Positions 23,663-51,742 of a DNA stretch of 64,000 bases are shown one piece after another. Where the stretch lies: the NCBI GenBank assembly GCA_963693055.1, contig OY843751.1:4544001-4608000 (forward strand). Reading direction: 5' to 3'. The notes below the pieces were generated by a model. It saw only the letters and a program-made list of their open reading frames with translations, searched no databases and was not told where the DNA came from. Made by a program: the position numbers and the translations under genes. Origin of the DNA: a bacterium (GTDB taxonomy: Bacteria; Zhuqueibacterota; Zhuqueibacteria; Residuimicrobiales; Krinioviventaceae). Position 1 is the first letter of the stretch. The number at the start of each line of letters is the position of its first letter.

Positions 23663-23695
23663 AAAAAAAAAGCCGACAAATGTCGGCTTTTTTTT
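23663..23695. terminator. Bidirectional rho-independent terminator closing the ABC permease operon and the convergent gene
   Basis: A9-GCCGACA-AA-TGTCGGC-T8. Confidence 0.9.
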
Positions 23696-49429: not shown

Positions 49430-51742
49430 TTATTCATACCTCAACGCCTCTACCGGATTCGCCGTAGCGGTTTTGATTACCTGCCAGCTTGTGGTCAGTA
49501 GAGCAATGGACAAAGCTGCAATACCCGAGATGGCAAATATCCACCAGCCCAACTCAGTACGATACGCAAAACTCTCAAGCCACTTGTTCATGATATACCA
49601 GCTCATCGGTACAGCGATAACAAATGCAATAACGGTCCATTTCAGCATATCCCGGTTCAGCAGGGCTGTTATCTCCCGCACTGATGCACCATTCACTTTG
49701 CGAATGCCTACCTCTTTGGCGCGACGTCGGGTCGTAAACTGCACCACACCAAAGGTACCCATAGCTGTAATCAGCAGGGCAATTACAGAAAAAATCCGGA
49801 TTGCGAATCCCAGTCTTTCTTCAGATTTATACATGGCATCATACCATTCGTCATAAAAAGAATATTCTAATACAAATTCAGGACAAACCTCATCCCAAAC
49901 ATTCTGGATATAATCCAAAGTGCCTGAAATATTTTCAGGAGCAATTCTCAGAGACAGCCAGGTATAATAGCTATCCTGATTATAAATAAAAAACGCGGGT
50001 TCAAGAGATTTGTACATACTCTCCGTATGAAAATCCTTAACGACTCCAATCACATCATTACCATTAATCTTTTTGTCCACAATTGAATTCCAGTTCACCA
50101 ATTTCCTGGCAGATTCATTAATGATAATGACATTGTTTTTCTCTGTTTCAATAAAATTTCTACCCTCAATGACCGAAATATCAAAAACATTGAAAAAATC
50201 CGTATCTACCATAAAAGTGGATACACTTTCTTTCCAGGTTCCCGCATCATACGCTTCATTCCATCCGTTTCCCATATATACTGCACCGGGACCGCTGTTT
50301 GAACAGGTCACATGATAAATTTGCGGAGATTCTGCAATTTTCTGTTTCAACAAGGGCAGTTTATCCTTGATCCGCCATGACACTTCAATCTTGACCAGGC
50401 AATCCTTGTCAAATCCCCAATCCATATTTTTAACATGCTTCATCTGAAGACTGATCACGATCAGCGCCGTGATCAGGATAATACTTACGGTATACTGCAC
50501 AGTCAGTAATCCCGCCTTGATCTTGAGCGCATTCCCATCAACATTGCGAAACATGGAGAGAACCGAGTAACGCGACGCCAGTATCGCGGGAAACAATCCT
50601 GCCAGTACCGAAATAAAAATCAACCCCGCAGGGATCAACAGGACCGTGGGCATCGAGTAAATATAATTCATATCAAAGGACTTGTTGACAATAGACTCAA
50701 ACACCGGTTTGGTCAAACCGGACAATAAAATAGCTGCCAAAAGTGATATGGCGCCAATCATTACAGATTCCAGAATAAATTGAAAAAATATAGTTTTACA
50801 ACCAGCGCCGACGGTCTTTTTAGTGCCAATCTCTTTGATCCGGGTCATATATTGTGCTGTAAACAAAACAATAAAATTTAAAATCGAGATTAAAAGAACC
50901 AACAGGGCAATTGCTCCCAAAATACGGATCAATCGCAAATTGGCGTGCATTAAATGGCTGCTGTCCCGGGCATCACTGAAATACGAATCTTTTAGAGACA
51001 TCAGATGGACCGGGTTATCCACCATATCATGATCAATTAAATGCGCGGACAATTTTCCATTAACTGCCGAAACATCACTGCCAGGCTCAAGCAGTACAAA
51101 ATAACGGTTAAAATATATTGTCTCACCATCATTTGTATAGCTGTTGACAACTGTTTTCAGGTCTCTGTGAATTATGGCTTTTGGCTGAAGACTGGAATTT
51201 CCAGGCAAGGATTTAATCACTGCACTCACGGTTAGATCATTTTTATGATATACCGTTAACGGTTCTCCAACAGGATTCCGTTCACCAAACAGTTTTTGTG
51301 CAATTTCTTCAGTCAAAATGATGGAATTTATATCGCTCAGAGCTGTCTCTTTGTTACCATATACAAAATCCACATCAAAAATATCAAAGAATGATGGTTC
51401 GGTATGCAGAATTTGATTGACCTTGAACGAATGCAGATCATGGGTCAATGCACCCCGGAAATTGATAAAATAGTTATATCGGCATACCTGTTCAATTTCA
51501 GGGAAATCATGGGTCAGATAATCAATTGCATCTTCGTTAATATCACTCTTGTCACCGTCTTTGATTATCCGATAAATACGGTCGACTTTGCTAAAAGCCC
51601 GGTCATAAGACAATTCATTAAATACAAAAGCGGATAACAGCAGGACCACTGTCAGGCTCAGTGTAAATCCTGATATGGTAATAACCGAGAATGTCTTGTT
51701 CCTGATCAAATTTCTATAAAACAACCGAAAAAAATGGATCAT
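49430..51742 (-). CDS. MacB/FtsX-type ABC permease, copy 1
   Basis: Start MIHFFRLFYRNL after a GGGAG RBS; RAKEVGIRKVNGAS, NPVEALRYE. Confidence 0.92.
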   Translation of the reverse strand: MIHFFRLFYRNLIRNKTFSVITISGFTLSLTVVLLLSAFVFNELSYDRAFSKVDRIYRIIKDGDKSDINEDAIDYLTHDFPEIEQVCRYNYFINFRGALTHDLHSFKVNQILHTEPSFFDIFDVDFVYGNKETALSDINSIILTEEIAQKLFGERNPVGEPLTVYHKNDLTVSAVIKSLPGNSSLQPKAIIHRDLKTVVNSYTNDGETIYFNRYFVLLEPGSDVSAVNGKLSAHLIDHDMVDNPVHLMSLKDSYFSDARDSSHLMHANLRLIRILGAIALLVLLISILNFIVLFTAQYMTRIKEIGTKKTVGAGCKTIFFQFILESVMIGAISLLAAILLSGLTKPVFESIVNKSFDMNYIYSMPTVLLIPAGLIFISVLAGLFPAILASRYSVLSMFRNVDGNALKIKAGLLTVQYTVSIILITALIVISLQMKHVKNMDWGFDKDCLVKIEVSWRIKDKLPLLKQKIAESPQIYHVTCSNSGPGAVYMGNGWNEAYDAGTWKESVSTFMVDTDFFNVFDISVIEGRNFIETEKNNVIIINESARKLVNWNSIVDKKINGNDVIGVVKDFHTESMYKSLEPAFFIYNQDSYYTWLSLRIAPENISGTLDYIQNVWDEVCPEFVLEYSFYDEWYDAMYKSEERLGFAIRIFSVIALLITAMGTFGVVQFTTRRRAKEVGIRKVNGASVREITALLNRDMLKWTVIAFVIAVPMSWYIMNKWLESFAYRTELGWWIFAISGIAALSIALLTTSWQVIKTATANPVEALRYE

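Follow-up and report, generated by a model that had tools for sequence, protein, structure and literature searches.

Shared gene endings in a bacterial MacB/FtsX permease array as a probable footprint of recombination between gene tails

We analyzed a 64,000-nucleotide (nt) stretch of a bacterial genome from the phylum Zhuqueibacterota (GenBank assembly GCA_963693055.1, contig OY843751.1, positions 4,544,001 to 4,608,000; hereafter the window), which contains an array of 11 divergent permease genes, nine of which end in the same short DNA motif. The genome holding the window, G000, is complete (completeness 100%), 6.54 Mb in size, and has a G+C content of 39%. Comparisons with related arrays suggest that the shared ending arose as the permease genes recombined with one another, repeatedly, at their 3′ tails. 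In the following sections, we describe the operon and its gene ends, and then weigh this explanation against its alternatives.

Organization of the permease operon

All genes of the operon lie head to tail on the minus strand, in the order adaptor, four-helix-bundle gene, ATPase, ten permeases, second ATPase, and eleventh permease. All 11 permeases contain MacB_PCD and FtsX domains that score above the Pfam cut-offs, and they are 25–38% identical pairwise. The nearest NCBIfam models are TIGR03434 (ADOP) and NF038008 (DarB), and scores fall under both curated cut-offs; for ADOP membership, the three of 11 permeases that were scanned reached 235–296 bits, against a cut-off of 622.3 bits. The features of the operon are given below in window coordinates, together with the main differences from a genome of the same genus, G001.

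53227..54477, minus strand: periplasmic adaptor (HlyD/MacA-like), first operon gene (profile search)
52706..53071, minus strand: four-helix-bundle protein (PF05635 and TIGR02436 above cut-off), inverted TCAG-type 7-mer repeats on both sides
51911..52600, minus strand: ABC ATPase 1 (profile search)
49430..51760, minus strand: permease p1, duplicated architecture with MacB_PCD and FtsX; G001 orthologue 89% identical
46920..49289, minus strand: permease p2; two additional permeases lie behind the G001 orthologue, the first of which repeats its final 185 nt at ~97%
44487..46823, minus strand: permease p3 (domains, G001 comparison)
42026..44404, minus strand: permease p4 (domains, G001 comparison)
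39512..41902, minus strand: permease p5; in G001, an additional permease separates the p5 and p6 orthologues, with the breakpoint at the p6 head
37046..39436, minus strand: permease p6; G001 orthologue with the tail TTG CGC TAT GAG, without the motif
34605..36965, minus strand: permease p7, an exception, with the tail CTG AAA TAT GAA TAG
32193..34541, minus strand: permease p8, with its own Shine–Dalgarno (SD)-like sequence TTGAGGTT upstream
29639..32050, minus strand: permease p9 (domains, G001 comparison)
27033..29486, minus strand: permease p10, not in G001, where the gene in that slot is 28% identical
26110..26793, minus strand: ABC ATPase 2 (LolD/MacB type; profile search)
23694..26117, minus strand: permease p11, last gene and the other exception, with the tail ATA AAG TAT GAA TAA and an 8-nt overlap with the ATPase 2 stop
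23663..23693, strand not assigned: terminator-like hairpin at the operon end, read from sequence

The true start of p7 is probably the TTG at 36947, which is preceded by AGGAGA; AGGAG is the top 5-mer before starts in G000, a genome that uses SD sequences.

The terminal motif

A first-pass annotation of this stretch had reported nine motif copies at permease stops, and all nine were found on the minus strand: the motif TTGAGGTWTGARTRA closes nine of the 11 array permeases and has no other exact match in the 6.5-Mb genome. The block common to these genes is wider than first reported and reads ATCCGGT-n-RCGTTGAGGTWTGARTRA. The copies, read from sequence, are as follows.

49430..49444, minus strand: tail motif TTGAGGTATGAATAA of p1
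46920..46934, minus strand: tail motif of p2
44487..44501, minus strand: tail motif of p3
42026..42040, minus strand: tail motif of p4
39512..39526, minus strand: tail motif of p5
37046..37060, minus strand: tail motif of p6
32193..32207, minus strand: tail motif of p8, TTT variant
29639..29653, minus strand: tail motif of p9, with no repeat behind
27033..27047, minus strand: tail motif of p10
14996..15007, minus strand: 16S rRNA 3′ end with the anti-SD sequence ATCACCTCCTTT, used for the pairing test

It had also been argued that nine identical codon choices are unlikely. This applies to the arginine codon: AGG is the rarest Arg codon in G000, with a share of 6.9% over the genome and 9.3% within the array. 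The share is 6–7% where TTG precedes or Tyr/Phe follows, and it reaches 16% near the ends of other genes (last eight codons). The presence of AGG at nine of nine terminal Arg positions has p = 5e-7 even if a share of 20% is assumed. TTG adds little to the significance of the motif because it is the commonest Leu codon (27% in the genome, 36% in the array). When the 11 genes are aligned, the terminal Arg stands out most strongly among 243 conserved columns (p = 5e-9), followed by TTG (9/10) and by Pro CCG at −8 (8/11). Synonymous identity over the whole array genes is near chance (0.44 vs 0.41 expected), which bears out the proposal that the gene end is special at the nucleotide level. Isolated homologues, for which a check of the same codons had been suggested, do not use AGG: the six non-array homologues of ~410 amino acids (aa) that end in L/I-R-Y have CGT, AGA, AGA, AGA, CGA, and CGC. 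The annotated pairing of GAGGT, 5 nt upstream of the stop, with the anti-SD was likewise reproduced; the duplex with the 16S tail GATCACCTCCTTT is predicted at −7.0 kcal/mol for AGG, compared with −3.0 kcal/mol for AGA.

Whole-gene differences between related arrays

G001 shares nine orthologues (89–96% identical) with G000 in the same order, as well as the terminal gene. The two arrays differ by five whole permeases, as G001 has four without a counterpart in G000 and lacks p10, and the aligned blocks break at the stops of p2 and p9 and at the start of p6. Orthologue groups also occupy different positions in different genera, so that array order, which the first-pass annotation had proposed to compare among relatives, is not fixed. 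One of the G001 genes, q25375, has a body that is 36% identical to that of its upstream neighbor, yet it carries the neighbor's last 185 nt; its start lies 1 nt past the neighbor's stop, with the GAGG of the tail at ribosome-binding distance (L012:7700-7750). A similar pair, of 180 nt, is found in G004. Long shared tracts in G001 and G004 start near codon −60, and codon identity is raised at a W-P motif (−49 to −61) and at Ser −19 in many arrays, even between genomes. These comparisons support an open, cassette-like array, in which whole permeases come and go at the junctions between genes, chiefly at tails. The idea of a cassette crossover site, raised in the annotation, stands as far as whole permeases are gained or lost at junctions. 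It is not supported as an integron-like, sequence-specific site, for which no integron integrase above cut-off was found and whose motif is absent from most homologous arrays.

Between the G000 and G001 orthologues, 28 of 162 nt are changed in codons −9 to −14, compared with 420 of 4590 in bodies (p = 0.001), and TTG AGG (−4, −3) is near-frozen, with 1 of 17 codons changed vs 27% elsewhere (p = 0.05). The p6 orthologue of G001 has lost the motif and is still in place. The repeats in the spacers behind p3, p4, and p9 are of a different type in the two genomes. In public contigs from two runs with this strain, the array is single and unbroken, with no variants, circles, or supported joint; run X4 is similar to G001 and not independent.

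Unrelated passenger genes are found within the arrays of relatives, and their ends are without the motif. They include a PIN/Phd toxin–antitoxin pair on the opposite strand, a methyltransferase, an FGE-sulfatase-like protein, esterases, peptidases, a DNA alkylation repair protein, and a LolA-like protein (L028:9090-9736, L029:10174-11304, L030:1012-2268, L037:12693-14195, L038:3601-5313, L016:16852-19053, L015:15227-15934, and L022:2655-3383).

Evidence for exchange of tails

Near-identical tracts number 18 in 592 paralogue pairs within one genome and 11 in 6357 pairs between genomes, in a count that omits G000–G001 pairs and long pairs of >60% identity. Seventeen of the 18 within-genome tracts lie inside the last 61 codons, and eight reach the stop. 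Across the arrays, shared tracts range from ~30 to 185 nt. A comparable pattern is found in distant phyla, where the sample was 237 genes of named loci in Bacteroidota, Ignavibacteria, Aminicenantes, and other groups. Here, 25 tracts (14 at the tail, six at the head, five elsewhere) are present in 439 within-locus pairs, with 20 pairs of >55% identity skipped, compared with three in 3986 sampled between-locus pairs. A tail tract is present in 10 of the 48 distant loci with multiple genes, and seven of the 25 tracts end at the stop.

The tails track the genome, and the bodies track the orthologues. Where an orthologue exists in another genome (46 genes), the similarity of the last 12 codons is 0.69 to the home paralogues and 0.68 to the orthologue. 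The home paralogue is at least as similar as the orthologue for 28 of 46 tails, vs seven for the EIGIRK block and two for a mid-gene block (Wilcoxon p = 1e-6; the genes are not independent). Both of these blocks track the orthologue, and the former is as conserved as the tail; the separate histories of tail and body are judged here from identities. The within-minus-between codon excess is 0.094 in six tail columns vs 0.004 ± 0.039 in 93 others, and in 15 of 29 arrays, where 4.5 would be expected, a column of the last 14 codons ranks among the three strongest codon outliers; G000 is the most extreme. Since the tests have genes and kin in common, the p-values for tail exchange are overstated.

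Orphan copies of the tail are present in spacers of G014, G005, and G017, three genomes of another genus. A G017 spacer (L019:16040-16300) has five tandem tail copies of ~51 nt, each interrupted at AATCCG by a short palindrome, and their coding sense is eroding. A Lys at −3, as in the two exceptional genes of G000, is found in 7 of 28 tails without a downstream permease and in 3 of 72 internal tails, and several of these are orthologous. Recent whole-gene duplication was rejected as a source of the shared tails, as no pair of bodies within a genome exceeds 45% identity. A 73-nt stretch that had seemed identical in p2 and p11 proved not to be exact.

Distribution of the AGG ending

To describe the spread of the motif, we used 120 complete tails from 16 genomes, namely G000 and those 15 of 40 searched relatives whose arrays were fetched. 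AGG is used by 38 of the 106 tails that have Arg, with 19 of 22 in this genus and 19 of 84 elsewhere, and outside the genus the share per genome ranges from 6/10 (G004) to 1/17 (G003) and 0/6 (G017). A pattern search of all 167 species genomes of the phylum gave 1309 tails with 154 AGG, 236 AGA, and 919 CGN codons; this count takes in single-domain homologues and has no per-genome background. Among the 37 genomes with at least ten tails in a hand tally, which leaves out G049 (1/10), AGG makes up at least half of the tails in three and at most a tenth in 17. The motif is missing from most homologous arrays, some of which have 60–90 tails. In the distant phyla, 29 of 205 Arg tails use AGG, against a background of 14%; together with the phylum-wide count, this rules out a universal AGG site. 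Different arrays have fixed different codons (AGG, GTG, TCA, TTA, CGA, AGA, ACG, AGT, or CCG). The letters of the motif are therefore lineage-specific and do not form a universal signal.

Spacers, repeats, and flanking genes

Several spacers of the array contain 7-mer inverted-repeat hairpins or a short palindrome. Hairpins begin at most 5 nt from the stop, and folding was calculated for the sense strand, as RNA.

49352..49429, minus strand: 7-mer hairpin from the p1 stop, z = −4.2; 25-nt arm equal to that of p4, 5′ arm near-identical to that of p2
46840..46919 (approximate ends), minus strand: 7-mer hairpin behind p2, z = −1.7
41938..42024 (approximate ends), minus strand: 7-mer hairpin behind p4, z = −5.5; other repeat type in the G001 orthologue
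37015..37045, minus strand: short palindromic element GTCCTTCGACAAGCTCAGG behind p6, with a degenerate copy behind p10 and a few more in the genome
32107..32192 (approximate ends), minus strand: 7-mer hairpin behind p8, z = −1.3

We take the GTCCTTCGACAAGCTCAGG element to be REP (repetitive extragenic palindrome)-like. The repeat element that the annotation had tied to the motif follows eight of the nine genes, and p9 (stop at 29639) has no recognizable repeat. The link fails outside this genus (p = 0.14), and G003 has repeats with AGG in only 1 of 17 tails. The motif is also not a target of the 7-mer repeats: 20 of 27 genes flagged for a period of seven lie outside the array, some of them low-complexity false hits, and none of these 20 has the motif.

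Repeats of the TCAG, TAGCT, and GTGAGAC types occur at window positions 52600-53227, where they invert around the four-helix-bundle gene, and on C1 at ~3.76-4.21, 4.93, and 5.27-5.29 Mb; they recur just past the stops of unrelated genes, and similar 7-mers lie behind permease stops in Bacteroidota loci. They also follow two tandem genes of 599 aa with near-identical ends (C1:4194003-4197789) and each of two genes of 1146 aa (C1:4205715-4209155 and 5290587-5294027). None of the three small GIY-YIG genes of G000 is flanked by the repeats or palindromes of the array; of those at C1:5147300-5148100 and 2551300-2552400, one lies within long tandem repeats and one is partly duplicated.

Next to the operon, a sigma-54 response regulator and a histidine kinase are encoded divergently (54721..57427, plus strand; profile search). 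The open reading frames (ORFs) that flank the system, at 23059-23646 and 57553-58161 (195 and 202 aa), have no NCBIfam match and no or a weak Pfam match. An rRNA operon with tRNA-Ile and tRNA-Ala in its spacer lies at 11941-17300 on the minus strand, and a tRNA-Leu at 19279-19363.

Search for dedicated recombination machinery

A scan for nearby recombinases, as the annotation had advised, found none near the array: the nearest tyrosine recombinase is 198 kb away, and a serine recombinase ~3 Mb. The best G000 match to the integron integrase model (TIGR02249) scored 80.9 bits against a cut-off of 265. IS110 (PF02371) has no match in this complete genome, and the locus does not fit an IS110 bridge-RNA target array. 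An attC site has the form RYYYAAC, hairpin, GTTRRRY, the last being the integron core. In the array, GTTGAGG precedes the stop; it is on the 5′ side of the hairpin, takes no part in the stem, and has no CCTCAAC partner in the spacers. For a diversity-generating retroelement, the four-helix-bundle gene scored 36.5 against an Avd cut-off of 80, in an analysis without a specific search for template/variable pairs. The sole reverse transcriptase of G000 is encoded ~121 kb from the array (386 aa, C1:4445790-4448873), flanked by an unassigned 417-aa gene and by a pair that appears UmuD/UmuC-like from its N-termini, a neighborhood that is possibly a retron or defense module. A search of G000 for an antisense small RNA site gave one coding match at one mismatch and none in intergenic regions. 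Short ORFs behind the stop show no association with AGG. Frameshifting, for which the geometry of prfB served as the comparison, and readthrough were considered from the sequence, and in-frame stops follow in the p1 spacer. As judged from these profile and pattern searches, no dedicated recombination machine was found for the array.

Origin of the shared ending

We consider it likely that the shared ending is the footprint of repeated recombination between permease 3′ tails, that is, of concerted evolution, with TTG AGG as the form fixed in this genus. The conserved block would comprise the tail A-N-P-V-x-A-L-R-Y-E-stop, reach up to the W-P motif 60 codons upstream, and adjoin the spacer, and the recombination machinery of the host could cross over or convert there without a dedicated recombinase. 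A single crossover would remove or add a unit of spacer, body, and tail, and conversion would transfer a tail to a neighbor, with or without the hairpin. Every event would extend perfect identity and so favor the next one, until a core of 13–15 nt is fixed, and the bases flanking the core would vary because they arrive with the incoming DNA. The bodies, with periplasmic domains that presumably determine specificity, remain divergent and appear to come from other lineages, so that the array would provide common ATPases and an adaptor with an open library of permease subunits. The shared tracts, the chimeric gene, the whole-gene insertions and deletions, and the genome-tracking tails are observed, and we infer from them the recombination pathway, the feedback by which a short core is fixed, and an origin of the bodies in other lineages. 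The G000 ending is best understood as an instance, and the most extreme one, of tail exchange that is widespread in permease arrays.

Several observations weigh against this explanation. The fixed core in G000 is just ~13–15 nt, with a variable Glu codon, Val codon at −7, and residue at −6, and such a length is short for RecA alone. A short core with variable flanks leaves room for selection of GAGGT and for exchange driven by a hairpin nuclease, and less for a site-specific system. The codon excess in tails is also seen between genomes (+0.07 to +0.09), so that part of the signal is a general 3′-end bias or shared ancestry, and G017 and G018 have little or no tail excess (+0.06, −0.05). AGG is again above background in G004 (6/10), G014 (4/11), G022 (4/10), G053 (6/10), and G158 (15/57), and could therefore be a favored allele. 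The raised rate at codons −9 to −14 may reflect relaxed constraint, as synonymous changes alone give p = 0.07. Gains and losses of permeases are unpolarized, and no recombination event was directly observed; as contigs omit rare forms, the unbroken array says little about rare rearrangements.

Among the alternatives, selection of GAGGT as an RNA signal is, in our view, unlikely. As a ribosome terminates, its 16S tail would pair with GAGGT, 3 nt ahead of the last sense codon; this could make the ribosome pause, keep it in place for re-initiation, or protect the mRNA beside the hairpin, effects that could add to tail exchange. That the rarest Arg codon gives the strongest pairing fits this proposal, as do the near-freezing of the core between congeners, with AGG changed at 8 of 20 other sites, the G001 gene that begins 1 nt past such a stop, the lack of the motif in the last gene, p11, and a genome-wide AGG share near stops of 27% if the next gene is at most 12 nt away, vs 15%. 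In the array, however, the gaps measure 63–239 nt and SD-like sites are present in front of the downstream genes themselves, whereas re-initiation is reportedly almost lost by ~20 nt (PMC10666635). Moreover, AGG is not linked to a nearby start codon across 106 tails (15/38 vs 38/68, p = 0.16), most homologous arrays lack AGG, no second motif copy could encode an antisense RNA, and a signal of this kind leaves the 185-nt tracts, the scars, and the other fixed codons unexplained. Exchange could also be started actively, by a nuclease that cuts the hairpin or palindrome at the stop, with repair off a sister junction copying tail and spacer in tracts anchored at the stop. We find this quite improbable. 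The closeness of hairpins to stops, the tracts that finish there (8/18 and 7/25), the turnover of spacer repeats between congeners, and the palindromes in tail scars all speak for it, and site-specific nucleases that cut such repeats as single-stranded DNA exist in Neisseria (PMC11893778). But G004 tails are homogenized with no obvious repeats behind their stops, the 7-mers also lie behind unrelated genes, the GIY-YIG genes lack flanking array repeats, and the codon nearest the stop is not homogenized.

A site-specific, integron-like system that adds and excises permease cassettes at a motif core is very improbable. The core is short, sharp, and unique in the genome, GTTGAGG is near GTTRRRY, hairpins are nearby, and whole genes are inserted and deleted. 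Against this stand the sub-threshold integrase score, the lack of IS110, the distant recombinases, the position of the motif outside the hairpin stem, the congener gene that remains in place without the motif, the variable tract lengths, one insertion or deletion at a gene head, and the different ends of passengers in relatives. Ordinary 3′-end codon bias combined with shared ancestry is hardly credible as an explanation. It would account for the elevated AGG share in the last eight codons genome-wide and for the tail excess between genomes, but not for the significance that remains at an assumed share of 20%, for array synonymous sites that are otherwise near chance, or for the absence of AGG in non-array homologues. 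As a sole cause it was rejected by the codon statistics and by the comparison of tails with orthologues.

Beyond recombination between tails in this genus, a broader proposal appears doubtful to us and is offered as speculation: MacB/FtsX permease arrays in this phylum, in Bacteroidota, and in related groups might be integrase-free cassette libraries, in which the coding tail is the landing site and, in this genus, also a ready ribosome-binding site, and in which breaks at stop-codon hairpins would drive the capture of bodies and passengers from other lineages. Large arrays of MacB/FtsX permeases are common in Bacteroidota and related phyla. If tail exchange is correct, it offers a testable route in which exchange takes place at a short, constant tail, and bodies diverge and pass from one lineage to another. 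A rare-codon motif at gene ends can then be a recombination footprint and not a signal, and C-terminal sequences would mislead trees of these permease families. In the main texts that were searched, with subscription journals mostly outside the search, we found no account of tail homogenization or of the build-up of these arrays.

Comparison with known systems

The array belongs with duplicated permeases of the MacB/FtsX type (PF12704 and PF02687), with which it shares the domains, the adaptor and ATPase partners, the LRxE C-terminus, and the arrangement in multi-copy arrays. It resembles integrons in its single head-to-tail orientation, in the gain, loss, and reordering of whole genes, in a short shared gene-end sequence with intergenic hairpins, and, in relatives, in some unrelated passenger genes. 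It differs from them in having no integrase and no attC geometry, in a site that lies within coding sequence and is not conserved across taxa, and in variable tract lengths. With termination–reinitiation coupling (PMC10666635), it shares an SD-like sequence at the 3′ end of the upstream gene. This coupling needs an overlap or a gap of <~20 nt, which is found at one G001 junction and at none of the nine here.

The closest precedent appears to be the lpl cluster of Staphylococcus aureus, in which a conserved stretch inside each tandem ORF likely serves homologous recombination (Tsuru & Kobayashi, 2008; PMC2568036). In both cases, tandem paralogues contain a conserved block per ORF, rearrange between genomes, and have a junction that moves as a unit. 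Gene parts also have different histories, seen in incongruent trees for lpl and, here, in tails tracking the genome and bodies the orthologues, and the nucleotide block is conserved beyond protein constraint in nearly every ORF. The lpl block is central and its unit spans two adjacent genes, whereas here the block is at the extreme 3′ end, and weakly at the head, and a terminal block implies that whole gene bodies are exchanged. The paralogues here are also only ~30% identical, their hairpin spacers turn over, and the pattern extends across several phyla instead of strains of one species.

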